NCBI GenBank assembly: GCA_964016885.1
Contig: OZ024744.1
Location: 53,320,001-53,384,000, forward strand
Reading direction: 5' to 3'
DNA: 64,000 nt
Origin: Eledone cirrhosa
Taxonomy: Eukaryota
Below the pieces are notes generated by a model that had not been told where the DNA came from, searched no databases, and saw only the letters and a list, made by a program, of their open reading frames with translations. Shown here piece after piece: positions 4,164 through 36,473 of the stretch (its first letter is position 1; each line of letters begins with the position of its first letter). Made by a program: the position numbers and the translations under genes.

Positions 4164-4211
<48 letters not shown>

Positions 4212-4218: not shown

Positions 4219-6830
4219 CTCTTTGAGTCTCAGTCATTGATGTTAGTTAACTGGAAAGTTTGTTGAGATGAATATCAAGCCACTACCTGCAGCCTCAGAT
4301 ATTCAGGGTGTATCGGAGGGTTCTTGCTGTTCCCAGCAAGCATGCCTTTTGAAGCATTCCAAAAAGCGTGAAGGGGCCAATTTTCTTTAACCATCCCTGG
4401 AAACTTTTTGAGATAGTCCCTAGTGCGCCTATGACAATCGGGATCACTTTGACTTCATGGCAGTTCCAAATCCTTTTTACCTCCCACTTTAAGTCCTGAT
4501 ATCGGTTAATTTCCTCCCTCTCCTTCTCTTGCACTCTCGTGTCGAATGGGCAGGCCACATCCACAATCAGGCACGATCTTTTTTCTGTGTCCAAAACCAC
4601 CAGGTCAGGTCTATTGTGTTCCAGTTTCTTGTCCGTCTGTATCCTAAAATCCCACAGCACCTTCACCTGATCATTTTCTATCACCGCCTCTGGCTTATGC
4701 TCATACCACTTCTCAGAATGTGGTAAATTGTTTACTCTGCATAGGTGCCAATGGATCACCCTGCCCATCACATCATGTCTCCAGCCTTTATAGTGAGTCT
4801 GGGCTAGGTGTTTACACTCGGATACAATGTGAGCCACAGTCTCCTCACTCTCTCCACAGATCCTGCACAGTGGGCTAGCCTCCTCCTTGTAAATGTGGTG
4901 TTTCAACCACTTCGTTTTGAGGGCTTGCTCCTGCGCAGCCATTAACATTCCTTCTGTAGCCTTTTTAAGGTCTCCTCTTTTCAACCAGTTCCATGTCTGT
5001 GGATCTCTAAATTCAGTTTTCTCAAAGAAGGTACTATGAAGGGATTTTTCATGAAGGCTGCTCTTCCTCCTTGATGTTATTTCCTCCTTGGACATCCCCT
5101 GGCCTATTGTCCCCTCCTTCGGTACAGCTCTGAGCATTGGCTCCTTACTATCAGTCACGTATTTGTGTAGGTTGTTTTTCTCCATCTGAACACAGTCCTC
5201 TATGCTGATAAGACCTCTTCCACCCTCAGATCTCCTTAAGTAGAGTCTATCGACATCACTCCTCTTGTGTAACATATTGTAGATAGTCAGTAGCTTCCTA
5301 GTCTTCCTATCCATTTATTTTTGTTCAGCAACATTCCATCTCAGAATTCCCGCACTGTACCTAATAATAGACACAGCTCGGGAATTTACTGCACTCATGG
5401 CATTCCTACTGTTCAGATGTGACTTTAATACGCTCCTTACTCTCCGACGGTATTCAGTTCTTATCAATTCCTTCATTTTTTTGTTATTGATGTCATCAGC
5501 CTCCAGAACGCCCAAATACTTGTATCCTTCTTCAGAGTCAATTTCTTTTTTCATCTCACCTGTTGCTATCTGGATTCCGTTACTTCTGCTCAACTTAGCC
5601 CTCCTAATCACAATGACTCCACACTGACTAATACCAAATTGCATACATATATCATTGCTGAAAATACGGACAGTGTCAACAAGCACATCCAACTCCTTCT
5701 CACTCTTCCCGAAGAGCTTAAGATCGTCCATGAAGAGGAGGTGATTGATGGTAAGCCCTCCCTTTCCCAACCTGTATCCTGCTCTCACCTTTCGCAGTAC
5801 AGTGGTCAGGAGCATCAGGGCAAGGACAAACAATAGAGGGGACAGACTATCTCCCTGGAAGATACCTCTCTTGATCTTCAAGCTTCCCAAGGATTCTCCA
5901 GTTGATGTCAACTCTGTTTCCCAGGACTTCATACTTTTGCCCAACAACTGTCTAATGTTATCTGCCACCTTGAAAATCTCTAGGCTTTTGGTCATCCAAG
6001 AATCAGGCACCATGTCAAATGCCTTTTTGTAGTCTATCCATCCCATGGCAAGACCAGTGTGTCTCCTCTTGCAATACCTCATTACCATCTTATCAATAAG
6101 TAACTGGTCCTTTTTACCACGGGACTTCTTTCGGCATCCTTTCTGTTCGTCCGGTAACAAGTTGTTTGTGTGCAGGTGATGGTAGATTTCCTCAGACACA
6201 ATGCTTGTCAACAGTTTCCACATTACGGACAGACATGTAATAGGTCTATAGTTGGTAATATCATTACCCTTGATTCGGTCTTTTATTATCAGAACTGTGG
6301 TACCTTTTGTCAACCACTCTTGTACCTCACCTGACATCAAGCAGTCATTGAACATGGTTGTTAGTTTCGGGTGGAGGGATGTTATGTTTTTAATCCAATA
6401 CCCCTGCACACCATCTGGGCCAGGTGATTTCCAGTTGGTTAGTTTTTTGGCCTGCCCCTTAAGAGTTTCAACTGTGATACTCAAATCAGTTTGTTGGCGT
6501 GCCTGTTCACTGATCTCCTTCTGTACTGTCTCAATCCACACTGCCTGGTCATTATGTTTAACATCCTGCTCCCATATTCCTCTCCAGAATGTTTTAGTTT
6601 GTACCGCCCCAGGGATGAAGTCGTTGCCTCTTTCTTTCCCTTCAAGCTGTCCAAACAGCATCTTCTGGTTGTTGTCGAACATGCGGTTCTGTCTATACTG
6701 GCTGACTCTGTTCTCGTATCGCCTGATTTTTGCACTTTTTGCTACAATGCGTTGCTTCAGTTCCTCTATGATAATATTTAGGTTTTTCCTCCTAGTTTTG
6801 TACTTTATTTCCAGTCTATTTTTAGTGTCT
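4219..6830 (-). mobile_element. R4/Dong-like RLE non-LTR retrotransposon, family Dong-A, 5'-truncated, with an in-frame stop
   Basis: ORFs 5315-6682 and 4295-5314 are in frame, separated by one stop. Motifs [57 protein letters not shown]. (ATT)n on both sides. Confidence 0.95.
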
Positions 6831-6849
6831 ATTATTATTATTATTATTA

Positions 6850-9800
6850 CAGATGCATTTATCTTGCTTTATGTTCATACGAGTTATCACCAAGTCACAA
6901 CCAGTGACCTCAAGAGACAACAAGGTCCGCCATGTTCAAGAAAGAACATACATATTCACACATGCATCTTTAGTGTTTAGACTTGTGATGTACTTATATT
7001 GACAGAATCTTCCTTAGTATATGGGCAGTTCCCATTAGTACTATCTTTTGTATTTCTCCTATACGCGGGTTTCCTGGGATTTGCGATAACTAGTCATTAG
7101 ACCCCTTAGGTATCATTCCCAGAGCGCCTACAACCACTGGTATTGTTTTAGTTCTCAATTTCCACATTTTTCCAATTTCTATCTCCAGGTCCTTATACTT
7201 GCTCAATTTTTCAAATGTTTTTATAGGTACATTCTTGTCTATTGGAACAGACATATCAATTAGCAGGCATACCCTCTTTTGAAAGTCCTTCAATATTATA
7301 TCAGGTCAATTTGCATCTATTTTTCGGTCTGTTTGGATGCTAAAGTTCCACAAGATTGAAATGTGATCTTTTTCAAGTATGGGAGGTGGTTGATGCTCCC
7401 ACCAATTCTTTTGATGGGGCAGGTCAAAATGCTTACACATTATCCAATGTATGTATTGTGCAGCTCTGTCATGCCTGTTTAGGTATTCGGTTGGAGCTAT
7501 AGGACTGCACATTGAAATTATATGGTCAATGGTCTCTGGTTGTTTTTTGCATACACGGCATAATGGGCTGCACCCATTTTTTATTATGTTGGCTTGGTAA
7601 TTTTTTGTTGGCAGACACTGATCTTGTGCGGATATAATCAGTCCTTCAGTCTCCGATTTCAGTCCAGAGGATGCCAACCACTGATGGGTTAAAGTTTTGT
7701 CAACATCAGGATTGTTAGCTCGCTCTGGGTATTTTCCATACAGAGGCTTTTCTTGCCATTTCTTAGCCAGTTTCTGTAGCAGTTCTTTCTTTGCAGTTAC
7801 TTTTACCTGCTTTGCTTTTTCTGTGTTTTCCATTTCAGCAGTAAATGGGACTTCTGAAATTTGTAGTCCATTACTGTATCTTTGTGCATCTTTTGTAATG
7901 GAATATGATCTTTTGATGCTTTCGTGTTTCAAAACGAGTTTGATCATCCAATCATGTGATTCCCTTAGATATGTAGATAATCCAATTGTTGCAGTTTTCA
8001 ACGCAATGTCTAACTGGATTAACCCACGTCCTCTTTCTTTCCTAGGGAGATATATTCTATCTATATCTGCCTTAGGGTGATGCATTCTGTGCATGGTTAA
8101 GAATTTTCGAATTTTTGTATCGAGCCTACGGATCTCTGTGCTTGACAAGTTGATGACATTGTAACTGTAGGTTACTACTGGTATGGCAAGCGTGTTTATG
8201 GCATAAATCCTATTCCTTGCATTCAATTCCGTTCTTAAGATTGCTCTTACTCTGCGGTAACATTCCTTCCTTATCCTTTCCCTCATTGTCGAGTGCTTGA
8301 TTCCGTCTCCTTCACAAACACCTAGATATTTGTAAGTTTTTTCTTGATCAAGTTCTCTTATCATGTTCCCCCGATCAAGATTAATGTCTGAACTCTTCAG
8401 CAGCTTTCCTCTGGTGAACGTTGCTTTGGCGCATTTATCTAGTCCAAACTCCATTTTAATGTCATCACTGAACTGCTTCACAGTGGATAATAGCCCTTGC
8501 AATTGTTCATCATTTTTTGCAAATAGTTTCAGGTCATCCATGTAGAACAGGTGATTAATGGTTTTGTCATAGACTTTATATCCATGTTTTGTTTCATTGA
8601 GCATTTTACTTAATGGTATAAGCGCGATGCAGAATAAAAGCGGTGATAAAGAGTCACCCTGAAAAATTCCACAATTAATATTAACTTCTCCAGCTTCCAG
8701 TGATTTTGTTTCACTATTCAAAATGAGTGTCGTTTTCCATGTCTTCATACTGAATGACAAAAACCTCCTGACAACGGGGGATATTTTGAAAATCTCAAAA
8801 CATTTTTCAATCCAACTGTGTGGCAAACTATCGAATGCTTTTTTATAATCTATCCAAGCAATCGATAGATTTTTGTGTCTATTATGACAATCTTCCAGTA
8901 TCATTTTGTTAACCAGAAGCTGATCCTTACAGCCATATGAGCCTCGTTTACACCCTTTCTGCTCAATGGGAAATAGGTCATTTGTTATCAGGTGGTCATA
9001 TGTGTATTCAGTTAGGACTGATGTTAAAATTTTATTCATTGTGGTCAAGCAAGTTATCGGTCTGTAATTTTTGGGATTGTTTGTCTCATCATTCTTCGGA
9101 AGCAGGAATGTAATGCCGTTAATTAGCCATGATGGTATCTTTTCTGGCTCCTTAACTATTACATTGTAAAGCTGGGCTAACAGCTCATGAGACTCTGTGA
9201 AGGCATTTATCCAAAAGTTTTGTATTTTGTCTTTTCCTGGGGATTTCAATTTGCTGGTTTTTCTTAGAGCCAAGCGCAACTGTTCAACTGTTATATTTTC
9301 CCATGTTTGTTCCTCAAGGTGAGCTGTATCTTTCATTTGTCTGTCTGTCCATGGGGCATGTATGTTATGAACTTTTTCTTCGGCCCAGATCTTTTCCCAG
9401 AATTCTTGCACTTCCTCCTTGGGTGGTATTGATTTAGCAGTTATTGTTGACTTACCAATTTTTCTGTAGAAGTTTCTTTGGTTGTTTTTGAACATATTAT
9501 TGTCCTTATAGAATCTAGATCGTTTTTCAAGGCGCCTTATACGAGCAGCTTTGGCCGACACTTTTTGCTTGATTATTTCTATCAGCATGTCTATGTCACA
9601 TGTTGATTTTATACTGTACTTTTTTTTCAATTTTCTAAGTTTAGTTTGTTTAACATGTTCACCTACTTTATAGTTTGTTAAAATTTCTATGTCAGATCGG
9701 AGAAGGTTTATTTGGCGATTGATGTTCTCTTGCCAAGTAGATTTCTTGTGGGAATTCCTTTGTTTTTTCATCTTCACTCCACATAAGTGAGTGGTGACTT

Positions 9801-10231
9801 TAGCCGATGCATAATAGAGATGATTGAAATCAGTAATGTTTAGTTTGTTTGTGATGATAATGTTTTTGAGAATTATGTTAGTCTTGTGTATTATCTTTTG
9901 GTTCTGTTTGGAGTTCTGGATCTTAGGGAGGGTGTCTCGTTGCCCCATGTCAGATTCTTTCATTTTCATCCATTCGATCATAATTTCATCCTTCAAGTTG
10001 GCAAGTTCATTCTCATTCATTTCTTTATCATTTACGATCTCATTATTTTCATTTGGAGTTTCATCCTGAGCATGCACTCCCTCCACTTTTTCGATCCTTT
10101 CTTTAATTTGTTCTGTTGCCAGTGATTCCGCCCCAACCCTGGGATTCGAAGTGTTACAGTTTACCTCGTTTTCACTGACACATATTTCATTTTCCCTTCG
10201 CTGACTTTGTGCTAATAGCTTGATCTGATCA

Positions 10232-10234
<3 letters not shown>
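6850..10234 (-). mobile_element. R4/Dong-like element, family Dong-B, 5'-truncated
   Basis: 926-aa ORF 7306-10086 ([42 protein letters not shown]). A frameshift near 7306 is followed by the RLE tail to the stop at 6994. Distinct 3' UTR. ATT tracts at 6831-6849 and 10235-10283. Confidence 0.95.
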
Positions 10235-10274
<40 letters not shown>

Positions 10275-10283
10275 GTTGTTATT

Positions 10284-10982
10284 CCTTGAATCTCAGTCAT
10301 TGATGTTGGTTAACTGGAAAGTCCGTTGGAATGAATATCAAGCCACTACCTGCAGCCTCAGATATTCAGGACGTATCGGAGGGTTCTTGCTGTTCCAAGC
10401 AAGCATGCCTTTTGAAGCGTTCCAAAAAGCGTGAAGGGGCCGATTTTCTTTAACCATCCCTGGAAACTTTTGGAGATAGTCCCCAGTGCGCCTATGACAA
10501 TCGGGATCACTTTGACTTCATGGCAGTTCCAAATCCTTTTCACCTCCCACTTTAGGTCCTGGTATCGGTTAATTTTCTCCCTCTCCTTCTCTTGCACTCT
10601 CGTGTCGAACGGGCAGGCCACATCCACAATCAGACACGATCTTTTTTCTTTGTCCACAACCACCAGGTCAGGTCTATTGTGTTCCAGTTTTTTGTCCGTC
10701 TGTATCCTAAAATCCCACAGCATCTTCACCTGATTGTTCTCCATCACCGCCTCCGGCCTATGCTCATACCATTTCTCAGAATGTGGTAAATTGTTTACTT
10801 TGCACAGGTGCCAGTGGATCACCCTGCCCATCACATCATGTCTCCAGCCCTTATAGTGGGTCTGGGCTAGGTGTTTACACTCGGACACAATGTGAGCCAC
10901 AGTCTCCTCTCTCTCTCCACAGATCCTGCACAGTGGGCTAGCCTCCTCCTTGTAAATATGGTGCTTCAACCACTTCGTTTTT
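10284..10982 (-). mobile_element. Dong-A 3' fragment (zinc knuckle + RLE + 3' UTR)
   Basis: Near-identical to the 3' end of 36887-40444. ATT tracts on both sides. Confidence 0.95.
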
Positions 10983-11027
10983 ATTATTATTATTATTATT
11001 ATCATTATTATTATTATTATTATTATT

Positions 11028-12830
11028 TGCATTTATCTTGCTTTATGTTTATACGAGTTATCACCAAGTCACAACCAGTGACCTCAAGAGACAACAAGGT
11101 CCGCCATGTTCAAGAAAGAACACACATATTCACACATGCATCCTTAGTGTTTAGACTTGTGATGTACTTATATTGACAGGATCTTCCTTAGTATATGGGC
11201 AGTTCCCATTAGTACTATCTTTTGTATTTCTCCTATACGCGGGTTTCCTGGGATTTGCGATAAGTAGTCGTTAGACCCCTTAGGTATCATTCCCAGAGCG
11301 CCTACAACCACTGGTATTGTTTTAGTTCTCAATTTCCACATTTTTCCAATTTCTATCTCCAGGTCCTTATACTTGCTCAATTTTTCAAATGTTTTTATAG
11401 ATACATTCTTGTCTATTGGAACAGACATATCAATTAGCAGGCATACCCTCCTTTGAAAGTCCTTCAATATTATATCAGGTCTATTTGCATCTATTTTTCG
11501 GTCTGTTTGGATGCTAAAGTTCCACAAGATTGAGATGTGATCTTTTTCAAGTATGGGAGGTGGTTGATGCTCCCACCAATTCTTTTGATGGGGCAGGTCA
11601 AAATGCTTACACATTATCCAATGTATGTATTGTGCAGCTCTGTCATGCCTGTTTAGGTATTCGGTTGGAGCTATAGGACTGCACATTGAAATTATATGGT
11701 CAATGGTCTCTGGTTGTTTTTTGCATACACGGCATAATGGGCTGCACCCATTTTTTATTATGTTGGCTTGGTAATTTTTTGTTGGCAGACACTGATCTTG
11801 TGCGGATATAATCAGTCCTTCAGTCTCCGATTTCAGTCCAGAGGATGCCAACCACTGATGGGTTAAAGTTTTGTCAACATCAGGATTGTTAGCTCGCTCT
11901 GGGTATTTTCCATACAGAGGCTTTTCTTGCCATTTCTTAGCCAGTTTCTGTAGCAGTTCTTTCTTTGCAGTTACTTTTACCTGCTTTGCTTTTTCTGTGT
12001 TTTCCATTTCAGCAGTAAATGGGACTTCTGAAATTTGTAGTCCATTACTGTATCTTTGTGCATCTTTTGTAATGGAATATGATCTTTTGGTGCTTTCGTG
12101 TTTCAAAACGAGTTTGATCATCCAATCATGTGATTCCCTTAGATATGTGGATAATCCAATTGTTGCAGTTTTCAACGCAATGTCTAACTGGATTAACCCA
12201 CGTCCTCCTTCTTTCCTAGGGAGATATATTCTATCTATGTCTGCCTTAGGGTGATGCATTCTGTGCATGGTTAAGAATTTTCGGATTTTGGTATCGAGCC
12301 TACGGATCTCTCTGCTTGACCAGTTGATGACATTGTAACTGTAGGTTACTACTGGTATGGCAAGCGTGTTTATGGCATCGATCCTATTCCTTGCATTCAA
12401 TTCCGTTCTTAATATTGCTCTGACTCTGCGGTAACATTCCTTCCTTATCCTTTCCCTCATTGTCGAGTGCTTGATTCCGTCTCCTTCACAAACACCTAGA
12501 TATTTGTAAGTTTGTTCTTGATCAAGCTCTCTTATCACGTTCCCCCGATCAAGATTAATGTCTGAACTCTTCAGCAGCTTTCCTCTGATGAACGTGTCTT
12601 TGGCGTATTTGTCTAGTCCAAACTCCATTTTAATGTCCGCACTGAACTGCTCCACAGTGGATAATAGCCCTTGCCATTGCTCATCATTTTTTGCAAATAG
12701 TTTCAGGTCATCCATGTAGAATTAATGGTTTTGTCATAGACTCTATATCCATGTTTTGTTTCATTGAGCATTTTACTTAATGGTATAAGTGCGATGCTGA
12801 ATAAAAGCGGTGATAAAGAGTAACCCTGAA
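11028..12830 (-). mobile_element. Dong-B 5'-truncated copy
   Basis: 515-aa ORF 11168-12715 runs from MDD to the RLE C-terminus and is near-identical to 6850-8660. The 3' end abuts (ATT)n. Confidence 0.95.
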
Positions 12831-13069
12831 AAGTTTGGAACTCTTCCCCCGTTGATGGGCGTGAGCCCGAAATATTGGGATTAAATCTCCTCTACGGTAA
12901 CCCTTCTACCTTTGTTTTGTTTTCATTTTCATTTTCACTTTTCTCCTATTTCTCACTCACTTCTTACCTCGAGATTTCCCATCTGCATTGTTGTGGCTTT
13001 CTAAACTACATATTTTACACATTTCACAATGCTTCAAGCAAACTTTAACACCCTCTTATATATATATAT

Positions 13070-15779
13070 ATAAACAAATAGTAAAAAGGAAAAAAATACA
13101 GTAGAAATTGCTACTGGTATTTTTTCAGTATAACATCTAAACATTTATTTACAAAGTAGAGATTTCCGCATTTAATTGTGTACTGGTTTCAGCTTTATAT
13201 GCTTTTTCAACGGCGGAAGTGTATAGTGCAGTTAAATTACATATTAATACGAATAATAATAAAATGGAGAAAAACATTTTTAGTTTTTACATACATATTT
13301 AGGGAGGAAAATTCATACTTTTGTCTGTAGTTTTCTTTCATTCTCTGCTAGTGTTGGCCAACAGAGGTGTAGTAGTTTAAATTGTTGGCTTCGACTGTAG
13401 TGGTAGTAGTGGGGGTAGAAGGGGATGGAGAGGAAGGAGAAGTGGGGGAGGGGGGAAAGAAGAAAAAGACGAAATAGAAAAAAGCGACGAAGAAGAAGCG
13501 GGAGGGACAGGGGATAGGTGAGATAGTAATACCAGCGATATGGTAAGGAAGGGGAAGACGGAGAAGGGTTGGATGAAGCAGAAGGAGACATCAAGGAGCT
13601 GTAGTAGTTATAGTGTCACTATTAATAATGGTAAAGTGAGCTGTACGTGGGATTGGCTTAAATGATTGAGTGACCTTAGAGCTGACTGAGGAAGTCATTG
13701 TTTCTAAAAATATCTATATTGGTATTCCTGTCTGAAATACTGGCATTTTTAAATTGACCTGCAGTGTGGGTGTTTCTAACCTTCCAGCATTCACACCACT
13801 CCACATATATCACCATATTTTCATAGTAAAGGTTCCATCCTACATAATTATCTCACACAATATTGAGTCCATAAGACCCTGATATTACTCACTCCGAGAA
13901 CACCAGACCAATATCAGCATGAGCAGCCGGCCACAGCCAGCCTGAATTGAAGGAAGCTAGAGAACTCTTGCCGGACACGGCCGGTTCAAACGCCAATGGG
14001 TTAATTTGTCCAGGGTGCTAATTTTAAAGTTCTCCAGCTGCAGTTTCGTCCGAAGTAGATGCATTTAGAAGGGGTTCGTATTTGGCGATAAAGTGTGATT
14101 ACTTGCTAATGCGCTGGATGTAGGAAGTGTTGTCTTTAAATTTGTAGAAGGGAACGTTCTGAAATTGGGTTGTTCATTAGAGGCGCAGGTCGCAATGTGT
14201 TCACTCAGTGCTATTTTCCTGCATTCCCGTATTTTAATTTGGGATCTATGAACGGTCATACATTGACGAAGACTGTTTTTGGTCTCTCCCATGTAGTGCT
14301 CTCAACAGCCTGAGCAAGTCAACACATAAATCAGGTTTTCTGGTGCGCATGTGAAATTGTATTTCACTGTAAAGCGTTGACTCTGTTTGAAGTAGAACTA
14401 CAATCCCTCTATTAGGTTGATACATACACCACAGTTGAGTCTTCCGCATTTTTTTTCACTGTAGGGTTCATTGTGAGGGTCAGCTGGACTTTGGCCTGTG
14501 TAAGGATGTTTTTCATTGATTTGTGTTATCTTTCGCTCTTTATAATATTGTGCGTTTGAAGGATTTGATTCTCTCTTAGGTCTCTTTTTAGTAAATGTAT
14601 GTTCTGGAGGATGGCGTTAAGGGGGTTGTGTGTGGAGATGTATGGTAGAGCTTTCAGTTTCGATTCATTCTTTTTAGTTTGGGGTGTCTCAGTTCATAGA
14701 TACTGAGTTTTAGGGCATGTTGGAATCCATTGTTAATTAGGGATTGTGGGTAATTCCTGCTTATGAGTGTGTCCATTAATTTTTCTAGTCGTATATAGCA
14801 GGTGTTTCTATCAGATACTATTGTACAGATCCTTTTGGCTAGGTTGTAAGGGATGTTCATTTTGGAGTGTCTCGGGTGACATGAGTTGAATGGAAGATAT
14901 TGTTTAGAGTCTGTTGGCTTATAGTATATGACTGTTTCTATTTTGCTGTTAGTTTTCTTTATAAGGATGTCGAGGAAAGGAAGTTCCTCATGGCTGTATT
15001 CCATTGTAAATTGAATGTTTGTGTTGAGTCCATTTAGAAATGCTTTAAATTCGATAAATCTTTCCATACTTTCATACCAGAGAATGAAACAACCATCCAG
15101 ATATCTCTTCCAGTTTTTTCTATGTGGGGGTAGAAAGAGTTTCCGTATTTATCTAGTACTTTTCGGTAGAGGGTGATTTCCAAGTATTCAATAACAAGAT
15201 TGGCGGTTTTCGTGCACATGTCAGTCACAGATTTCTGCCTGTAGAATTTGGCATTGAATTCGAAGTAGTTATTCTCCAAGATAAATTTGAACCCTTCTAT
15301 TACGAATTCTTTTATGATGCGGTGTGGGAGATCATTGGGGTAATTTTCTAACCAGAATTGGATTGCTTCTATTGCTAGGTTGTGTGGGTTATTGGAATAT
15401 ATGTTGACTTTCATCAAAAGAAACTAGTATGATCGTTCATAGATCCCAAATCAAAATACAGGAATACAGAAAAATAGCTCTGAGTGAACACATTGTGACC
15501 TGCGCCTCTAATGAAAAATCCAATTTCAGAAATATGAAATTTCCTCTCTAAATATGTATGTAAAAACTAAACATTTTTTCTCCATTATATTATTATTCGT
15601 ATCAATATGCAATTTAACTGCACCAAACACTTCCGCCGTTGAAAAAGAATGCAAAGATGAAACCGCGACACAATTAAATACGGAAATCTCTACTTCGTAA
15701 ATAAATGTTTTGATGTTATACTAAAAAAAATCCCTCTAGCATTTTCTACTGTATTTCTTTCCTTTTTACTATTTGTTTT

Positions 15780-15783
<4 letters not shown>
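13070..15783 (-). mobile_element. Penelope-like element 1 (degenerate RT + GIY-YIG) with an inverted copy of its 3' end
   Basis: Fragments 15034-15417, 14654-15067 (LPFLDI, YYKPTDSKQYL..SCHP) and 14065-14292 (GET..LRQCMTVH). 15533-15783 is the reverse complement of about 13070-13318, and 15432-15530 is the reverse complement of about 14160-14258. (TA)n on both flanks. Confidence 0.9.
13178..13214 (-). ncRNA. Degenerate hammerhead (U3-A8) in the PLE1 terminus
   Basis: Minus strand reads UUGAAAA-AGC(AUAUAAA)GCU-GAAA-CCAG-UA. Helix I is poor, and the inverted copy at about 15636-15672 is more decayed. Confidence 0.5.
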
Positions 15784-15813
<30 letters not shown>

Positions 15814-15858
15814 ACTGGAGTCTTATTTTTTTAAATAATATATATATTTATTTGGTTC

Positions 15859-15894
15859 CTTTACCGGTTTCGCAGTTCTTCTGCTTTTCAAAAG
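15859..15894 (-). ncRNA. Minimal type I hammerhead ribozyme, U3-A8 core variant
   Basis: Minus strand reads CUU-UUGAAAA-GCAG(AAGAA)CUGC-GAAA-CCGG-UA-AAG. It is sense to the PLE ORF and lies at its 3' end. Confidence 0.8.
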
Positions 15895-16109
15895 TAGAGT
15901 TGAGATGGAGGGTCTGTGGTTTTTCTCACATCTGGTTGGTCTCTCAATATTACTTGTTTTATATGGAAAAAGTGGGTCGAAATGCCAGGTTTTTCGAGAA
16001 GTAATTTGATTGGTTGGTCAATAATTATAATAAATTTCACGCCAGTTCGCGTTACAATAGTTCTTCAAATAAGAGGGGGGGGGGGGTGTCACAGGTTGTT
16101 TTTTTCATA

Positions 16110-16745
16110 TATGTGTGTTTGAATTTGTTTTACTTGAAAAAAGGGGCTCACGAAGGCTTTTTTTTGGTTGGTTATAAATGAAATTATGGCTGTCACGTGA
16201 ACAAGTTTTCATTAAATTTTCGCGCCCTTATTTGGAAATCCATTCTGTAGCCTTTTTAGAGAATTTTATGATAAGTAAAAGATAATGGTCAAGAGAAATG
16301 GGATGGGAGAATTGTTCTGGTTCATTGAATATGGTTAGTTCGCTGGGGTGTCAGAATTCAGATTTTCTATTGAATAAAGAAAGTAAAGATATGTATGTTT
16401 ATTTGTGTGCTTGTGTGTGTGTGCGTGTGAGTGTGTGTGTGTTGTGTGTGTGTGTTTGAATTTCTTTTTACTTAAAAAAAAGGTGGCTCACAAAGGCTTC
16501 TTTTAATAAACGTAATTTGATTGGTTATAAATGAAATTTGGCTGTCACGTGAACAAATTTTCATTATATTTTCGCGCCCTTATTTGGAAATCTATTCTGT
16601 AGCCTTTATAGAGAATGTTATGACAAGGGAAAGATAGTGGTCAAGAGAAATGGGATGGGAGAATTGTTCTGGTTCAGTGAATATGGTTAGTTCGCTGGGG
16701 TGTCAAATTTCAGATTTTCTATTGAAGTAAAGATATGTATGTTTA

Positions 16746-16770
<25 letters not shown>
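16110..16770. repeat. ~350-bp tandem duplication inside the PLE2 3' UTR/pLTR
   Basis: CTGTCACGTGAACAA recurs at about 16190/16542 and GAGAAATGGGATGGG at about 16293/16646. Confidence 0.85.
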
Positions 16771-16776
<6 letters not shown>

Positions 16777-17000
16777 CTATTAGTAGAAATGGGGGAGGGA
16801 GTTGTGTATATGGGTGTTATGTGTGTGTGTGCGAGTATGTTAAGATGGAGAGAATATATATTTTGTGTGTGTGTATATATGTGTGTAGGAAAGTGGTTCT
16901 ATTAGTAGAAATAGGGGAGGGAGTTGTGGGTGTGGGGGTTGTTATGTGTGTGTATGGGTGTTATGTGTGTGGGAGTATGGTTAGCATGTTAAGATGAAGA

Positions 17001-17047
<47 letters not shown>

Positions 17048-17253
17048 GTGTGTGTGTGTGTGTGTAGAAAAATGATTCCTTTAGTAGGAATATTTGTGAA
17101 TGAACATATTTTTCTTACTTCTTCGTATTTGTTCTGTCGTATTGTCAGTGCAAACGTATGTTAAGGTTTATTTAGTTCGGGTTTTTATTTTCTAAAGTAG
17201 ACGGTGTTATGTGTGTGTGTGTGTGTCATATTATGGTGTTGACATAATGTATA

Positions 17254-20200
17254 TTAAACCATACTTAATGCTGGTCTATATTTTTGAATAAACATATTCT
17301 CCTTATTTATTCGTATTTGTTCTGTTGCATTGTTAGCGCAAAGGTAAAATGGGAAGACTTGGAATTTGGGTGTCTTATTACTTGCGCAAATGTCTAGATA
17401 TGCACTTAGTGGTATCTGTCTCGTGGTTGGATCTCGTAATTGTTGGCGATGAACTGTCATTCTGTTTCTGAGTGTGAGTTTAGTCTGTCCTATATAATCT
17501 TCATTGCATCCTTTACATTTAAGGCATTAATTAGATTTTTTGATGAGCAAGTGATTTTTTACAGTAAAATTTTGTCCTGATTTAAATGTATACGTGTTGC
17601 CTTCAATGAGGTGAGTGCAGGTTCCACAATTAGAGCGACCACATTTTTTAATACTTGGTTGTGGGTTTGTGGTAGGTAATTTGGCATTGGTGAGTAATGT
17701 TTTCAGTGATTTTGGTTGTCTTTTGCTTTTGATTATTTTGTGTGTTTCAAGGGCTTTTTTCATTCTTGGGTCTTGTTTTAGTAATGGGATGTTCTTGTGA
17801 ATAGTGTTGTAAGCTTCCGCATTTCTTAGGTTGTGTGTTGAGATATATGATAGAATATTGGACGTACCTTGAATTTGTTTCTGTTTTCGTAATTCATCAA
17901 TGCCTATTGCTTTAGCCCTTTCTATTCCATTATTTATTAGTAATAGTGGGTACTCTCTCTCAAGTAGAATTTCCTTTAATTCTTGAAGTCTTTTATTTCA
18001 CGTTTCTTAATTGGAGACAATTGTGCAAATTCTTCTTGCTAGGTTAAAAGGAATGTTCATCTTCGTGTGCTTTGGATGGTTGGAGGTGAATAGCAGATAT
18101 TGTTTGGAATCTGTTAGTTTGTAGTGTATGTCAGTTTCGATATTTGTGTCTTTTTTTAAGATTAAGATGTCCAGAAATGGGAGTTGATCTTGGCTGTATT
18201 CCATTGTGAATTGGATATGGTTATTGATGCCGTTTATTAAGCTTTTGAAATCCTTCAGTTGGTCGAGTGTGTGGGACCAAAGTATGAGACAATCATCCAA
18301 GTAGCGTTTCCAATTCTCTGATAAATATTTGTGGAAGTTCAATCCGTATATTGATTTGGACCGTTCAGATATCTGGACTTCTAAGTATGCCATGACTAAG
18401 TTGGCATAAGTTGGAGCGGCTTTTGTACCCATCGCAGTCCCCGATATTTGCTTGTAAGTATTGCCATCGAAATCAAAAAAGTTGTTCTGTAAGATAAATT
18501 TTAATCCCTCGGTGATGAAGCTTTTTTCTATTCTGTCAGGTATCTCATTGGGATATTTCTCTAGCCAGAATCCTATTGCTTCTAGTCCGTATTGGTGTGG
18601 GATCGTTGTGTAGAGATTTACTACATCGAAAGACACAATAATAGTGTCGTTGTTGACATGTTTGGGGAGGTGGTTTAAGAGGTCAAGATCGTTTCTTACA
18701 AGGCTTGGTATGTGTTTGAGAATTGGTTTCAGTAGTATGTCTATAAAGTTGCTCAGTCTGTGTGTTTCACATTGTGGGCTCGCTACAATTGGTCTTAATT
18801 TAAGGTCTGTGGGGTATTGTGTGTTCACTCAGGCTGAGGTGGATTGTTTACAGGCATCGTTAATTATTTTACACTCGTGGATCTTCGGAAGTCCGTAAAG
18901 GTTGCTGGTTTTGTATTCAAAATTTGTTAAATAATCGCGTTCCTTTTTAGTTAGGTCTTCCTGGTATCGATAAATCATCATGTTTAATCTGGTCATTATT
19001 TTTGATTGCTGGTAGTTTTTTACTCTTTCATAGTAATTAGTATTTTGTAAGAGAGAGAACATAGAATTTTTATATTTTTCAGCCTCCATAATGACAACAG
19101 TAGTTCCCTTGTCCGCTTCCTTAATTATAATGTCCGTATTGTTTTTTAGTTCATGGATAATCTCCCATTCCCTTCGACTCGTGTTGGGTTTGGGTTTAGG
19201 TTGCGGTAGTTCATGGTATGGGAAGGTAGCTATGTGGTCACACAATTTGTCCAGAACTCTGTTTCTACCTTTTGTTGGGTTGTAGCTGCTTTTATTCCGT
19301 ACAATTGATTCGTCGTTATTCTCTTTGTCAAAGAATTCCTCTGTGAGACGTAATTTTCTACAGAAGTGCGAGATATCGTCATTTATCTCATTGGGGTTAG
19401 AGTATTGTGGTGTTGGTGTGAATTTCAGTCCTTTGGAGATAATTTTTACTTGTTGGGCTGAGAGGTTTGTATTTGAAAGGTTGATTATTTTCGGTTTTTC
19501 AAAATCGGTTTGTGCCACCGGGTGTCGTGAGTCCTGTAGCCTTGGTCTAAAAAAATGATTTTTCTGGAATGTTTTTTCAATGGTATTATTATATATAATG
19601 GTATTTCCTCTGTTGTTGTGTGGTCTTGTATAGAAGTTTCGGACGTATTGAGGTTCGGTTTGTTGATAGTCCGGGTTGTAGATTTTGTTCCTCTGTGTGG
19701 GTTGGGATCTACGATTTTGGAACAGGCTCTGTGTGGGCAGGGGTCTACGGTTTGGGAATAGGTTTTGTGTGGGTTGTGATCTGCGGATAGGGTCCTGCCT
19801 TGTGTTCGGGGATCTTTGGTTTTTGTTAGTAGGGTTATAGTTTTGTCTATGGTTTCTGGGATTATCGTTATAGTTTTGCTGGGGGTATGTTGGACGTTTT
19901 GTTACTTTTTTCGTTATTTGTTGTGCATGTGGTGTGTGAGTTTTAGTTTGTTTTAAAAATGGGTTAGCTGTATGTTGTTCATTTTTGAAGTCCATTTCGT
20001 AGTTGTTGAACCAGGTGGCGTTTTTTTCCCATCGCTGGAGGGATGTTAGTTCTTCATCGTCACAGTTTTCTTTCCAAAGTTTTAGGGTTTTTTGTAGAGT
20101 AGGCCTTCAGAGTACTTTTAGATTTCTGTGTCCATCTGTTGGTCGAGTGACTTGAACTTTTCTTCGTTGGAGATGGCTCTTAATCGCAACAGTTCTATTT

Positions 20201-20340
20201 CTGTTTTAAATTTTTCCAACGCCATCTTTTCCATAAGTCTTTGTTGGTTTTCTGGTTCATTCGGGATGGGTTTTATTTGTAGTTTTTTGGGGAGGATGAT
20301 TGGGGTAGAGTTTAGCCACTTTTCATATATGTCTGCCTTG
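17254..20340 (-). pseudogene. PLE RT/GIY-YIG polyprotein with stops and frameshifts
   Basis: ORF pieces 20118-20340, 18829-19995, 18007-18828, 17527-17763 and 17254-17460. Confidence 0.9.
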
Positions 20341-21121
20341 CCATTATTTTTTAGGAGATTCCAAGGGCAAATTTGCGGGCTGCGAGCTTTTGAGTCCACA
20401 TTCTCTATAAAGGCTACAGAATAGATTTCCAAATAAGGGCGCGAAAATGTAATGAAAACTTGCTCACGTGACAGCCAAATTTCATTTATAACCAATCAAA
20501 TTACGTTTATTAAAAGAAAGCCTTCGTGAGCCACCTTTTTTTTAAGTAAAAAGAAATTCAAACACAAGACACACACACACACACATGCACACACACACAC
20601 ACAAGCACACAAATAAACATACATATCTTTACTTTCTTTATTCAATAGAAAATCTGAATTCTGACACCCCAGCAAACTAACCATATTCACTGAACCAGAA
20701 CAATTCTCCCATCCCATTTCTCTTGACCATTATCTTTTACTTATCATAAAATTCTCTAAAAAGGCTACAGAATGGATTTCCAAATAAGGGCGCGAAAATT
20801 TAATGAAAACTTGTTCATGTGACAGCCATAATTTCATTTATAACCAACCAAAAAAAAAGCCTTTGTGAGCCCCTTTTTTTAAGTAAAAAGAAATTCAAAC
20901 ACACATATATGAAAAAAACAACCTGTGACACCCCCACCCCCTCTTATTTGAAGAACTATTGTAACGCGAACTGGCGCGAAATTTATTATAATTATTGACC
21001 AACCAATCAAATTACTTCTCGAAAAACCTGGCATTTCGAGCCACTTTTTCCATATAAAACAAGTAACATTCAGAGACCAACCAGATGTGAGAAAAACCAC
21101 AGACCCTCCATCTCAACTCTA

Positions 21122-21157
21122 CTTTTGAAAAGCAGAAGAACTGCGAAACCGGTAAAG
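21122..21157 (+). ncRNA. Minimal type I hammerhead ribozyme, U3-A8 variant (inverted pLTR copy)
   Basis: CTT TTGAAAA GCAG AAGAA CTGC GAAA CCGG TA AAG, identical to the copy at 15859-15894. Confidence 0.8.
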
Positions 21158-21293
21158 GAACCAAATAAATATATATATATTTTTTAAAAATAAGACTCCA
21201 GTTGCATTTTCGATTTCATCTCTTTTTCTTTATACTTTCACTCGTGTAGGACACCTCCGTTATTTTTCAATTTGTAAAAAAAACCTCACTTTC

Positions 21294-21387
<94 letters not shown>

Positions 21388-21946: not shown

Positions 21947-25362
<3,416 letters not shown>

Positions 25363-27192
25363 GAATGCCATGGTTGACGGAGCCTCGGCTCTGTAAGTTA
25401 TTGTAAATTTTGACTGCTATAACAATTGTAAATTGTTTAAAACTTTAACCAAATTGTAGACAAAAACACCCTCCTCCTCGTGAGAGGGGTCTTTCTGTCC
25501 GTTATTTGGCCCTTCGAGGTTAAATAACCGCTTATTAGGGTTTTGTGCCCAATATTTATTTTAAACCCAAAAAAAACATGGCTACGAAAAAGAATTTTCA
25601 CAAGTCACTCCCACTCATTCCGTCTTCTTCTTCCTCAATCGTCACTACAGCAGTGAGAAGATTGTCTCTCTCCCACCCTTCTCAAAATGTGTCTCTGCCT
25701 CCCTTCTCTTTCGCAAGCGACGCCAGTAAAGAAAAATAGTTTCCAAAATCACGTGCAAAACATGGAACATTTCTCCACGACAACGACGAAAAAGGTGTGC
25801 GGTAAATACGAAAACCCATTTCATTCGTCTGACGTCTTGAATAATAGCAGTAGCAGCCGTAATAACAGCAGCAGCAGCAACAGTGACAAGGAAAACAACA
25901 GTAGCAGCCGCAACAGCATCAGCATCAGCATAAACAACAAAAGCACTAGCAGCAACGGCAACAACAACAGCAGCAGCAGCAATGGCAACAACAACCACAG
26001 CAACAGAGGCGGCGGCAGTAGTCGTAGTACCTGCAGGAACAACAAAAGTAACAGTATCTCTGACGACAAGAACAACAACAACAACAACAGCAGCAAAGAA
26101 AAACCAATCTCGTTTGCAGGTATCGCAAAGAACCTGGAAACCATCCTCATAACAAATGAGGAATTACAGGAAGCAAAGAAGATGGTTACGAAAACCGGAC
26201 ACCGAGCAATCTGCAAGGCAGCCGAAAAATATTTCGAAACCCAACAACACTGTACGGTCACGTACCGTACAGTAAGCGCAAAATCCCGTAGGGTTGAAAG
26301 AACCACAGAGGCTCAAATACAGAAAGCCTTAGGGTCTGTGTGGCAGCGGAAAACGCACATCACCCGAGGCAAAAAATATGCCACCGTAGACGTGCTTTTT
26401 GCCACACCCCAGGAGGCTAAGGCTCAATCCTTAGTGGTCCTAAGGAACGAGGAAATGGTGTTGGTTCCCTCCTACTGCGGGCAAAAAATGGTGAGGGTCA
26501 AACTGACCCACGTCCCCCCCGGGATGGCCCCTTCTTGGCTGGCCACGTCTGTCCTCGTCGGAATCGAGGACAAAACAACTGTACTGCAAGTACAGAAAAA
26601 AGTAGAGAAGATTGGGTCGGCACCTCAATTGAGATGTTAATCCAAACCAACCAGGAGTGCATCGAAGCTATCCCGGACGTGATAGACTTCGATAACGGCA
26701 CTCAACTGCCCATAAGTGTTGAGGGCAAACGCCCGAAATGCTTTCGCTATGGATCGTAGACTCACCTCAGGGACTTCTGAAACGAGAAGACCCTGATAAA
26801 CGAGAAAACCCCCCTCCTTCCGAAACCGGCTCTACTGCTACCAGCAACAGGACAAGCGGCAACCAGGAACGATAGGTCCGTGGCACCCATACCCACGCCA
26901 CGGAAATCAAGAACAGCAGCAGCAGTGGAAGTATTAACAACAACAATCAGTAATACCAACTGCAGCTGCAACAGAGACTCCACTGCAAACATCACCAACA
27001 ACAACAAGTGAAAGAGTGGAGCTGGTACCCCTCCCCGACCTCACAGAATCAAACATGGAGTGTGAGGTGGGAGAGGGATGGCAAAAGGTCGCAAGAAGGC
27101 ACAAACGCAGAAGCAGCGCATCGTCGCCTTCGAAAAGGGAGGAAAGAAATGAAAAAAGGGTAAAGACTACTGCAAAGAGATTCACAGTTTGC
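25363..27192 (+). mobile_element. 5' UTR + ORF1 of a second Tx1-like family (Tx1-B), cut off at an ATT tract
   Basis: ORF 25687-26640 has an N/S-rich N-terminus, then SFAGIAK..CTVTYRT..QIQKALG.VW..LVPSYCGQ, homologous to but diverged from Tx1-A ORF1. Decayed knuckle at about 26738. Its 5' UTR differs from 30732-30944. Confidence 0.85.
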
Positions 27193-27210
27193 ATTATTAT
27201 TATTATTATT

Positions 27211-30200
27211 ATGTGTACGCATCTCCCAGCCGTCCTGGATCGGGGGGAGGATTTGCTGTGCTTTTTCGGAGAGGTTTGGATCTCGCCATACGGGCCATCT
27301 TCTTGGACCCAGAAGGTAGGTTGGTGGTGCTGGACGTGACCAGCGGAGACGGGCAAGATTTCAGGCTAGTGGCCGTCTATGCCCCGACAGGAGCAGGGCG
27401 GCCTGATTTCTTCCGGCGTCTGGAGACCTTTCTTGGAACGTCCTGCTCTTTAGTGTTAGTGGGCGACTGGAACTAGATCTTAGATGCACGCTGGGACTGT
27501 GTGGGATTAGCGGATAAGGGAGGAGGGTGCAAGAGCCTCACCAACCTGCTCAGGCGTTTTGAACTGTCTGACAGGTACCGATTGGATTTCCCGAATGTGC
27601 CAATGTGGACTTGGACAAATCGCATAGGGTCATCCAGATCATATCTAGATAGAGTATTTTGTAGGGAAATAGATAGGTCTAGCATAGGCTGTCCACAATT
27701 CAAGATAGTCAGCTACACGGACCACAAATTCGTGATCTGTGTGCTTGACTTAGATAGGCTTCATAGACGAGGACCGAGCTACTGGAAGCTAAACGCGCGC
27801 TTACCAGCGCGCAAGGCCTACAGAGACCGGATTAGCGAATTAGTTAAGCGGGCGTTGACGGAGCCATCGTCAACAAGTGGTGATTTGCTCGGAAAAGGCG
27901 ATTAGGAGAGAGTCCATTAGGTTTAGTAAGGCTTTAGCAATAGAGAAAAATAGAGCAGAGGGAGAACTAGTTAGAAAATTAGACGAGGCGCTTAGCAAAG
28001 GCATCGCGACCGATGTACTGCGGCGAAATTGGCCCTTGACCAATTCTTCAATGCAAAGCACGAAGGCTGCGTTGTCAGATCTAGGGTGCGTGCTCTCAGA
28101 CACGAGGGGACGAAAGCCGTTCAATGGGCCCGAGTGGCGGAGGCGCGTCGTGGCAACAAAGGTAAGATCCGGTCTTTGGTGGACCACGACGGGCGCATGC
28201 TACTCGATTTCGGGCAAATGTGTGAAGATTTTCAGCGACAGTTCGCTCAACTGTTCATGGGCAGCGGTGGGCCGGGTCGAGGGATGGACTTTTGTGTCTA
28301 CCTCGACGGACTGCCGCGGCTCCCGGCCACAGAGGCGGAGTGTTGCGAAAAGCCGATAACAGCCGCTGAAGTACGGGAGGCAATGACTGGCTGCACAAGG
28401 GGTAAATCGCCTGGTTTGGATGGTGAGCCCTATGAGCTTCACGTACAGATGCCAGACTTGTTCGGAGGCTCTTAGCGGACGACTTCTGCAACTGGCAACA
28501 GAACGGGAGAATTCCCAGCTCTGTGAGCCGAGGAGCGGTGGCACTGCTGAGAAAGGATCCGAACAAGGGAGATAACATAGATAATTTCAGGCCCATTACT
28601 CTGCTAAACACAGAGTTCAAGATTTTGGCCAACGTGCTAGCAAAGAGGTTGGCGCTTGTCGTTGCTGGTCTGGTGGGAGTGGCGTAGACATGCGGCATTT
28701 CCGACAGATCCATCCACGACAACCTCCACCTCATGCGATACATCGTAGAGAGGGTAGCTAGGGAACCTGGCACGAGTGAGTCCTTGATCAATTTAGATCA
28801 GTCGAAAGCTTTCGATAGGGTCGACCATCGTTACCTAGCGGCAGTCCTGAAGGCGGCTGGCTTTGGGCCCGTCATCAGAGGCTGGATCACTGCCATGCAC
28901 AGCGACATCTGCTCTGTGGTGAGAGTGAACGGTCACCTTCAGGAACCGTTCAACATCATGCGTTCGGTCCGCCATGGATGTCCCCTCTCGTCCCTATTGT
29001 ACGTATTGACTCTCGAGCCATTACTGCACAAACTGGAGACGTTGGGGGGCGTCCCGCGCGAACATGGGTGTGGAAGATCCGTGTCAGCATATCGACGATG
29101 TCACGGTAGTGGTGTCGAACGCCAAACACATCGAGGCGATCGGCACTACACTAAGAGAATACGAAGCGGTGACAGGAGCAATGATCAACCAGGAAAAGTC
29201 AGTGGGCCTGCAGCTCGACACCTGGAGAGGCAGGTCCATGCCGCCCAACAGCGTCGTCGGGCGCTGGACGGACGGACCGGTTAAATTGCTAGGTGTCTGG
29301 TTCGGTCCGGATCTCCAGACGGACAAAAACTGGGACGAGGTGACTAGCAGGGTGGGTTCTCTTACCCATAAATGGGCGGAGTGGAAGCTATCCCCGAAAG
29401 GTCGAGCAGAGGTGGCTAAGGCGTACATCGCGTCTGTCATCTGCTATCGCCTGACCGTCGTACATTGTTCTAAGCCCCGCCTGACTGCGCTGGAGCGTTT
29501 GCTCTTTCGCTTTTTATGGAAGGGACGCGCTCCAATGGTCAGGCGGTCCATCTGTTGTCAACACCCGCTACGTGGAGGGCTGGGCATGCCGTGGCTGATG
29601 ATGTGCAGACACGCGCTCAGGCTACGACATCTCCATCTCTTCCTCAACGGTGATCAGGTGTGGTCGCCGTTTGCTAGACATGTATTTCCCCAGCTCGTTT
29701 CCTTGACGGAGCTGCAGTCCTGGGTCAAGCGAAGACCGAGAGGGAGCGCCCTGAGACTGGAATGTCTTCAGGCGCTCACAGCCCTCGACCAATCGGGCAA
29801 TGTGATCAGTGGAAACTCCACCTCGGCGTTCTATAGAGGATTAGTGGAGGGGAAGAGCGACGACATGCTTGGGGAAACTCTAGGCGTCGACGAAAATCAA
29901 CTAGCTAATCACTTCGGAAGAACTTTCGGGCCGGGGCCTATGCACAACTTCCAGAAATCTCTGGCCTGGCAGTGCTACCGAGGATTCTTGCCAGTTCGGG
30001 ATAAACTCTACAGGCATGGAGGTGCCGTCACCCGGGCATGTCCGAGATGCGCGCATGGCGACGAAACCGTCCTGCATGCACTCGTCCAGTGTCCGAGCAT
30101 TGCTGACTTGTGGGTTTATGTCGAACACCTGCTGTCACGTGTAGGACGGATCCGGCTATTATCTGAGTCCATCGTGAGGTACGCCCCGCCCTCCTCCTTT

Positions 30201-30704
30201 AGCCGGGAAGGGCAGGCAGATTTTATCTGACTGGTGGCCATGGCGAAAGACTTAGTATGGTGGACACGTTTGAAAGGGCTGAAGACGAGCACTTACCTCT
30301 TCGGTGATGCCCTGATTGACTTTTTCAAATTTCATTTGAAAAGGAAAATCAGGGTAGAGAGGGAAGTGCTCTCTTCCCAGCATTTTGTTGAAAGATGGGT
30401 GAGAGAAGCAAGAATGGCCCGAGTGAATGGGCCTACTCTGAGTATGTATCTGTAAATTAAAGGTGGAAAACTGGGAGAGGGCACTTGCCTTGGTGGACAG
30501 GGTCACAGTTGGCTTTTACTGGGCTTTCTCCACAAATATCCCTCCGAAGTCTCCCCCTATTGGCGAATTTTCATTGTTATTTTTTTGTTAAATCCTCTGT
30601 TTTTGTTTTTTACTCGCAGAAATGCCCATTTGTACCGTCCTGTATTGTCCTGCAGTGTCCTTAATGTCTATTTTATGTAAACCCTTGTGGTTAATAAAGA
30701 AATC
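27211..30704 (+). mobile_element. Tx1-A copy 2, 5'-truncated inside the APE domain
   Basis: APE motifs GDWN, SYLDRVF, TDH. RT motifs NFRPITLLN, LDQSKAFDRVDH, HGCPLS. zf-RVT in 29064-30230. Ends AATAAAGAAATC followed by (ATT)n. Confidence 0.94.
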
Positions 30705-30731
30705 ATTATTATTATTATTATTATTATTATT

Positions 30732-33700
30732 GGCGACCTACGTAGTAAATCGTATCATTGTGAGCTCCGCAAAAGTTTGTTATTTTCAGTTGTTTAAAAT
30801 TGCCATTTATGGAAAAATTTTATCGTTAACTGTATATAAGTGCACATACATTGATTTCTGAAAGGGCACTCAAAAATATTGGGTCTTGAGCCCAAAATTT
30901 AAACTTTTTATAATTATCAAACAAAAATTTTTCTTTGAAAAATCATGGGTGTCTCAAAGTCACTCCTTCCTCACAGTCTAACACCTCACACCGACACCAC
31001 CATTGTAAATATTGCTACGTTTGCCAACACTGGAAATGAAAGCAGTAGCAATATTTTAAATTTGTCTCAGGCAGACGTTTATTTACCGCCATTACCAATG
31101 ACTGCAGGTGTTAAAGCCGCCACCACCACCACCACCGCGACAACACCCTCCTCCCACCACCACCTCCACAGCGACAACAGAAACAAAAAAAAAATTAACT
31201 TGTGATATCGAAATGAATTCAACCAAAATGAACTCTTCCACACCGAACACCACTGACGCCACCACCACAACTGAAACTAAAATTAACAATAGCAAAAATA
31301 ACGATAACAACAACAGCAACAATGAAATTAAGAAAACTACCCTGAGTTTTGCCAGAGTAGCAAAAACGTGCGAAGCGATCCAGGTAACTCAGGAGGAATT
31401 AGAAGAAGCCAAAGGAATGGTAAAGAAAGATGGGTACAGGGTCAGCCCTCCCCCCCCCCACACACACACCTAATAAAATGGAGCAACGTCGCCTATGCAC
31501 CGTGTCTTATCGGACAATTAACATAAAATCGCGCCGAGTGGCACGGGCATCGGAGTCCCAAATCCAAAAAGCTTTGGGACATGTGTGGGCAAAAAAAACC
31601 CACATCAGACGTAGGCAGAAGTATGGAACCGTGGAAGTGTTCTTTGAAACACCACAGGAGGCCAGAGAACACTCCATGGCCCCATTAAGAAGTGACGACT
31701 TCACACTTGTCCCAAGCTATTGTGGCCAGAGACTTGTGAAGATCAGGGTAACCCACGTTCCACCGGCCATCGAAATTCCCTGGCTAATGGCTGCCGTCCT
31801 CGCCAGCATCGAGGCCTTAACCAAAATAATTGAAATAGCAAAAGAAATGCAGGAGAACTGGTCCAAGCGGACCATAAAAGCATTGAGGAGATCCCAGGGG
31901 TAATAGACCTCACTGACGGCAGCCACCTCACCGTAATTGTCGAGGGCAGAAGACCTAGGTGTGTCGTTTGTGGTGAAGGAACCCACCTAAGGGCTTTCTG
32001 CCCTCAGGCTAAAAGGTTGAGGCCACCTCTCTTACCCACACCAGTGACTCAACCATCAACACCACCAGCAGCAGAAATGGCAGCAACAACTGTAGCAGGA
32101 AAAACAGAAGCAACTGTAAGAGCAACAACCCCAGCAACAGTAGCAAAACCAACACCACCACCACCCAACGCGCCAGAACTAGCACCAGCGCCTACACCAT
32201 CCACCACGCCACAACCAAAACCAACGCCTGCGGAGTATTTTCCACTCCCCGGCTTATCGCAACTGGAGACAGATTGTGACAACGAGGAGTGGGAAACGGT
32301 ATCAGGAAAAAAAATAAAAATAAACCAAAAAAGAAAAAATTCTCTTCCTTCCCCCTCCAAAAACAAAATACAGAGGTAAACAAATAAATTAACAAACAAA
32401 AAAGTTAGGACAGATATGCCACCATCCACACCAGCATCACCAACCCCATTACCACAAATACCAACACCATCACCATCATTAACCCCAACACCACAAAAGT
32501 CACCAAAAAGCGTAACAGAAACAAACCCACAACAAACGCAAACAAAGCAAAACAACCAAAACGATACACACTACACAGTATTAAATTTGAACAACAACCA
32601 ATTATTACACTACATGCAACACAACACCAGCATCACAGAAAAAGACTACACAACAACCCAAAAGTTCACACCACTTCCACACATACAAATCAGTCGCATC
32701 ACACAGAAAACGTACACGACACTAAAACAAAAATTCCCCAAAGACATCAGAGGCTTCCGACAAACACTCCCCAGGAGGATTTATAAGGACATCCTTCCGG
32801 AGGAGGCCACAAGCAGTGAAAAGAATGGACAAGCCATCCTTCCTCTACGAGAAGTAAGGTAAGTGATCTTTCCCATCTTTTCCACTCCATTTCAACATGA
32901 CCTCTCTCAGAATAGGCAGAATAAATGCGCGGTGCTTGGGGTCGTCATGGAAGCAGGGCCACCTGCTCAACGACCTCAGGTCACTAAACATAGATGTAGT
33001 GGCCATCAGAGAGACCAGAATCTCCGAAGCACGGGTCTTCGCACAGATCTTCGGCGGCTACGATGTGTACGCATCTCCCAGCCGTCCGGAATCGGGGTGT
33101 GGAGTTGTTGTGCTTTTTCGGAGAGGTTTGGATCTTGCCATACGGGCCATCTTCCTGGACCCAGAAGGTAAGTGGGTGGTGCTAGACGTGACCAGCGGAG
33201 ACGGGCAAGCTTTCATGCTAGGGGCCGTCTATGCCCCGACCGGAGCAGGGCGGCCTGATTTCTTCCGGCGTCTGGAGACCTTTCTTGGAACGTCCCTCTC
33301 TTTAGTGTTAGTGGGCGACTGGAACGGGATCTTAGATGCACGCTGGGACTGTGTGGGATTAGCGGATAGAGGAGAAGGGTGCAAGACCCTCACCAACCTG
33401 CTCAGGCGTTTTGAACTGTCTGACAACTACCGATTGGATTTCCCGAAACTGCCAATGTGGACTTGGACGAATCGCATAGGGTCATCCAGATCATATCTAG
33501 ATAGAGTATTTTGTAGGGAAATATATAGGTCTAGCATAGGCTGTCCACAATTCAAGATAGTCAGCTACACTGACCACAAATTCGTGATTTGTGTGCTTGA
33601 CTTAGATAGGCTTCATAGACTAGGACCCGAATACTGGAAGCTAAACGCGTCCTTTCCAGCGCGCAAGGCCTACAGAGACCGGATTAGCGAACTAGTTAAG

Positions 33701-36437: not shown

Positions 36438-36473
<36 letters not shown>

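Follow-up and report, generated by a model that had tools for sequence, protein, structure and literature searches.

Can a hammerhead motif with an altered catalytic core still serve as a ribozyme in the retroelement that carries it? The question is raised by a 64,000-nt stretch of the Eledone cirrhosa genome (assembly GCA_964016885.1, contig OZ024744.1, positions 53,320,001 to 53,384,000 of the forward strand), hereafter the window, in which the remains of a Penelope-like element (PLE) carry two identical copies of a 36-nt motif, at 15859-15894 on the minus strand and 21122-21157 on the plus strand. Each copy consists of the helix I strand CUU, the core UUGAAAA, helix II formed by GCAG and CUGC around a 5-nt loop, followed by GAAA, CCGG, UA and the second helix I strand AAG. 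The predicted cut falls directly after GUA, between 15862 and 15861 in the minus-strand copy and between 21154 and 21155 in the plus-strand copy. Against the consensus (PMC7151607), 13 of 13 core positions agree except for the paired swap at positions 3 and 8, and the motif has what defines a minimal type I hammerhead, namely the core positions with 3 and 8 paired, the A15.1-U16.1 pair and H17. Helix III is the palindrome ACCGGU, and helix II opens with a G10.1-C11.1 pair in the window family, compared to A-U, U-A or U.U in other families. The unpaired base between A9 and position 10.1 is missing; it is a consensus trait in Cervera and de la Peña 2014 (PMC4209133) and is not required for catalysis. 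The coordinates and letters of both copies, their parse, the U3-A8 pair, the palindrome and the location in a PLE were all described in an earlier note on this DNA and are confirmed here. Altogether, the sequence supports reading the motif as a minimal hammerhead of type I whose core pair is U3-A8, carried in the pseudo-long terminal repeat (pLTR) of a Neptune-like Penelope element. As both window copies stem from one insertion, their identity gives no independent support to this assignment.

Pattern searches across the genome revealed how the 3-8 pair is distributed. Exact genome matches to 22 nt of the motif number 12,495, with none in the control; the same search with positions 3, 7 and 8 left free gave 11,039 matches, and the core reads UUGAAAA in 98 of the first 100 listed. 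Among cores preceding GAAACCGGUA, we found 20,001 with U3-A8, 141 with C3.A8, 98 with U3.G8 and 13 with C3-G8, where the reversed-pattern controls gave 13, 12, 8 and 6, respectively. U3-A8 makes up 20,001 of the 20,253 matches over these four pyrimidine-purine classes, and single-side changes account for 239. In the main family the latter look like decay after insertion. Some U3.G8 matches are older separate lineages and a few homologous copies carry C3-G8; these copies are possible steps between C-G and U-A. The U3.G8 lineages with the same palindrome are at loci L133-L140 and L146-L151, and the C3-G8 copies at L123, L125, L126 and L131. Of the 13 C3-G8 matches, some are chance hits (6 in the control) and two are junction artefacts, and the roughly 6-7 homologous copies are not enough to establish a sister lineage with C3-G8. 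The C3.A8 hits in the body of one sister family recur at a single place with a helix I of 0-2 bp, and were set aside as chance. In this genome, U3-A8 is the fixed state of a whole PLE clade. The earlier note regarded the swap as rare, a view that does not hold for PLEs, as U3-A8 was already reported in them by Cervera and de la Peña 2014.

The motif is also kept between families. Among 56 loci chosen by reverse transcriptase (RT) similarity, mostly about 60% identical to the window element in their RT, 42 have the U3-A8 motif with the palindrome, one has a U3.G8 motif only and 13 have none; a few of the motifs belong to other insertions nearby. In 16 representatives, helix I has a mean of 3.1 bp versus 0.9 bp with strands swapped between families, and helix II 3.7 bp versus 2.3 bp; none of 10,000 random strand swaps reached the observed mean of helix I or II. 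These representatives were hand-picked and are related single copies, so the comparison gives support and no probability, and two further planned representatives were not found by the script and were dropped. Positions 3 and 8 are pairable in all 16 (nine U-A, five U.G and two C-G, from a selecting pattern that also allowed C.A). The fourth pair of helix I is A-U in L128, A.G in the window and C-G in 25 of 30 loci; in run X1, C-G has about one third of the summed depth. Helices I and II show compensatory change between families.

This covariation refutes a chance look-alike multiplied by transposition, a reading that we consider barely credible. Copy number by itself would reflect transposition, the folding energy of the motif is not unusual, and an Rfam scan gave no hammerhead hit for either window copy. 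Against this, a strict descriptor, run over 60 loci that total 511,459 bases and were in part chosen for holding the motif, gave 11 U3-A8 hits, all in the window family, compared to none in five rounds of shuffled sequence, where any core was hit 0.4 times per round. The place and strand of the motif in the pLTR are as expected, and families with RTs of about 60% identity have kept it while their helices changed in compensation. The Rfam scan bears on a further proposal, that searches for CUGANGA miss such motifs: that string would indeed miss it, but the Rfam miss is not explained by the swap alone, because Rfam also overlooks a CUGACGA minimal motif near 62240 of the same window.

The element carrying the motif is a broken copy. 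The minus-strand motif lies in the 3' pLTR region (15814-16618, minus strand), sense to the open reading frame (ORF), and this left arm ends about 48 nt past the predicted cut, adjoining (TA)n. The broken ORF (17257-20401, minus strand) has in-frame stops and, compared to the ORF at locus L102, is short of about 285 nt at its start. It encodes an RT core at 18007-18828 (RVT_1, E-value 8.7e-8), a CX4CxxC motif at 17617-17646 in the linker joining RT to the endonuclease, which is a Neptune/Nematis trait, and the remains of a GIY-YIG endonuclease at 17266-17520, all on the minus strand. The endonuclease (E-value 1.5e-4) just missed the cut-off, with 22.4 bits against 22.6, which its relatives L102 and P0001 passed. 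The linker motif is shared with P0001, in which the CCHH motif is whole; one CCHH position is altered in the window copy and in L102. Where the ORF lost its beginning, it is joined to an inverted, 5'-truncated second pLTR copy (20398-21202, plus strand), which holds the other motif antisense to the ORF and agrees with the left arm in 779 of 801 aligned bases (97%). The right arm alone has a tail (21203-21295, plus strand) that reaches the long end of the family and adjoins (TA)n. Relatives of the ORF have both RT and GIY-YIG, and those of the best 120 that are named come mostly from bivalve molluscs. The single ORF with RT followed by a C-terminal GIY-YIG, together with inverted or tandem pLTRs and a one-sided tail, indicates an endonuclease-containing PLE, which appears Neptune-like by its linker and CCHH, although Nematis has the linker too. 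The window copy itself is a dead, truncated product with a weaker helix I of 3 bp.

A second, more decayed PLE (about 13057-15810) with inverted pLTRs abuts this one at a (TA)n tract. It has a related U3-A8 motif with different helices at 13176-13213 (minus strand), which includes a distal helix I segment (z-score -2.4), and a decayed second copy in its inverted arm at 15636-15672 (plus strand).

How might such a motif cleave? We propose that it probably cuts weakly after GUA, only as palindrome-paired copies and probably with help from the element protein. The basis for this proposal is sequence, position, copy number and between-family covariation. Two copies, on one transcript through both pLTRs or on two transcripts, would pair through ACCGGU as a double hammerhead whose strands cut each other. 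Such cleavage would trim the precursor RNA to unit length. Most new insertions would be made from RNA left uncut, with priming at (TA)n targets 80 or about 148 nt beyond the cut site. The two window copies cannot form such a dimer in cis, because they lie on opposite strands and one transcript cannot contain both. A direct tandem could form it. Locus L102 has such a full tandem, pLTR-ORF-pLTR, which is 96.5% alike to the window element; both its pLTRs carry the motif on the ORF strand, 4,915 nt apart, and the predicted cut lies 169 nt before the AUG. In the minimum of a two-copy cofold, ACCGGU forms a 6-bp intermolecular helix and helix II is kept; with a helix I of 4 bp, the double-hammerhead model lies 1.4 kcal/mol above this minimum, and the pair probability of helix I in the monomer is about 0.67.

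Cleavage of a single copy, with helix III replaced by A15.1-U16.1 and a C-G pair around a 2-nt loop, or by pairing of a distant part of the pLTR, is very unlikely. Both pairs can be drawn within one strand, and the neighbouring family has its distal helix I segment. However, a 2-nt loop is unstable, no distal helix was predicted for the window family, and a minimal PLE hammerhead of Schistosoma mansoni tested in PMC4209133 cleaved weakly as a dimer and not as a monomer.

The ends of the insertions show how family copies lie around the motif. In 30 motif-anchored arms, the end lies 146-149 nt past the cut in 15, 80 nt past it in nine and elsewhere in six. The arms typically end within (TA)n, and inverted pairs often have one long and one short end. 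The two positions agree with the two priming sites from which the tail of PLEs arises, as described by Frangieh et al. 2024 (PMC11167929). At the other side, 16 of the 30 arms begin 38-56 nt before helix II, and the summed contig depth rises several-fold near 21082-21110, which indicates many short insertions with an unbroken cut site inside. The cluster of 5' ends, at 21076-21094 of the window, may mark a place where transcription starts or where templates are switched; the short insertions from it are many and inverted. Small duplications starting at the predicted cut were seen at L160, L167, L170-L173 and L179, a set found with a pattern that selected this position, and in one case among these loci the motif is deleted from between the two strands of helix I.

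Several results weigh against cleavage. In a 51-nt monomer of the window form, with its 3-bp helix I, the pair probability of helix I is only about 0.02, and the double-hammerhead model lies 3.6 kcal/mol above the dimer minimum. Folding z-scores of the window family, from -0.4 to -1.1, are not significant. Copies starting at the cut site gave 253 matches, about 1% of the family, with about 19 true junctions in the first 30, compared to 204 matches and about 11 in the first 30 for a filter-matched control window, and 90 matches for a control whose filter rejects TA flanks; junctions were called by eye in the first 30 of each listing. The excess is at most twofold, and TA microhomology can explain it. 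The assayed S. mansoni motif is not stated to be U3-A8 in PMC4209133. For the PLE of the green anole, ribozyme mutants left insertion in vitro unchanged and RNA-seq showed no ends at the cut (PMC11167929). Finally, a sister PLE family has GCAA in place of the conserved GAAA (A13C), with 10,860 matches and C in 98 of the first 100 listed. It keeps U3-A8, helix II and the palindrome. Given its abundance, spread does not require an intact core, unless A13C happens to be tolerated when positions 3 and 8 are U-A.

Such results would fit a motif of hammerhead descent that is now kept for a non-catalytic job with negligible cleavage, the palindrome and helix II serving to dimerise the RNA or to bind the RT-endonuclease protein beside the priming sites. 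We regard this as a less likely explanation that still deserves serious weight. In its favor are the roughly 10,800 matches of the A13C family, a helix I of only 0-2 bp in seven of the 16 representatives, the near invariance of ACCGGU across families, the predicted cut site spanned intact by most family copies, and the dispensability of cleavage in the anole assay. On the other hand, positions 3 and 8 are pairable throughout the representatives, and G5, A6, A9, G12, U16.1 and H17 persist, as catalysis needs, though these letters were within the search patterns and their persistence is partly built in.

Position A13 is a consensus core base in Perreault et al. 2011 (PMC3088659). A literature search, with most subscription papers outside it, found no published counterpart of the A13C family or of the U3.G8 lineages, the only parts of these findings not seen in print. 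A tentative suggestion, which we rather doubt, is that one PLE clade of this genome holds a series of core states, namely C3-G8, U3.G8, U3-A8 and U3-A8 with A13C, and that either U3-A8/C13 forms an active core that is so far undescribed, or a PLE spreads equally well with a dead ribozyme. The A13C family is among those with the longest open frames found, and its loci include L081 (5593), L082 (8771 and 1885), L083 (2771), L084 (2778), L088, L089, L090 and L092.

U3-A8 in PLE hammerheads is already published, and the present finding adds one more host. Cervera and de la Peña 2014 reported it in the Cercyon PLEs of S. mansoni with about 1,300 descriptor hits, and their supplement contains a PLE-linked motif with an identical UUGAAAA core (S. 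mansoni family 4). The Eledone cirrhosa motif and those of Cercyon have in common the U3-A8 pair, type I topology, a short helix I and a palindrome for helix III, and they lie in pLTRs, often in close opposite-strand pairs. They differ in the palindrome, which is ACGU in Cercyon and the 6-nt ACCGGU here, and in that the window family has a helix II of 4 bp, no spare base after A9 and A at H17. The host lineage is different, and Eledone cirrhosa has about 20,000 matches versus about 1,300 in S. mansoni. The first natural U3-A8 hammerhead was described by Perreault et al. 2011, who state that such a core had already been shown active in vitro. The same 3/8 covariation is seen there, with several U3-A8 examples among rare core variants, whereas here the pair is fixed in a high-copy retroelement clade.

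The element also resembles Poseidon_Ac of the green anole (PMC11167929), whose ribozyme requires its protein, in having a pLTR hammerhead near the ORF start, two downstream priming sites that make the tail, and AT-rich targets. However, Poseidon_Ac has a C3-G8 core, Poseidon lacks the Cys linker, and the cut of Poseidon_Ac lies 26 nt after the AUG, compared to 169 nt before it in L102; the tail of the window family, about 68 nt, is a further difference. As for Neptune and Nematis, which are marked by the linker in Craig et al. 2021 (PMC8557442), the shared traits are RT followed by a C-terminal GIY-YIG, a CX2-5CxxC linker, CCHH, 5' truncation with an inverted copy, a one-sided tail and microsatellite targets. 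The inverted-copy layout is typical of PLEs according to the same paper. Li et al. 2026 and a review (PMC6765202) serve as context only. A metagenome scan found no related loci.

Other hammerhead-like repeats were seen in the window and at other loci. At 62236-62274 (plus strand) there is a CUGACGA minimal hammerhead with a helix I of 4 bp and an ACGU palindrome, which has a relative in L066. A CUGACGA core also occurs, together with a hairpin and GAAAC(C/U)(G/A)GUA, in another repeat, at about 61690-61725 (plus strand) and in L066, L079 and L124. A third family, UUGAUAA followed by a 4-bp hairpin and GAAACA, is found at L081 (7819 and 7573), L101 (1393 and 1302) and L073 (7068), with a possible flanking helix of 7-8 bp and an odd helix III, often as inverted pairs. 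Elsewhere, positions 1-12700, 22100-40400 and 51400-54700 of the window are densely packed with the remains of other non-LTR retrotransposons, and an open frame of 1,138 residues lies at 36961-40377 (minus strand).

These results bear on how hammerheads are found and what they do in PLEs. Searches limited to CUGANGA cores, as in Craig et al. 2021, can overlook the hammerhead class that dominates a genome. Either outcome for the A13C family, if true, would have a direct bearing on the open question of the purpose that PLE hammerheads serve. The natural series of 3-bp and 4-bp helix I, U3.G8 and A13C forms provides ready-made constructs for asking whether cleavage matters to the spread of PLEs.

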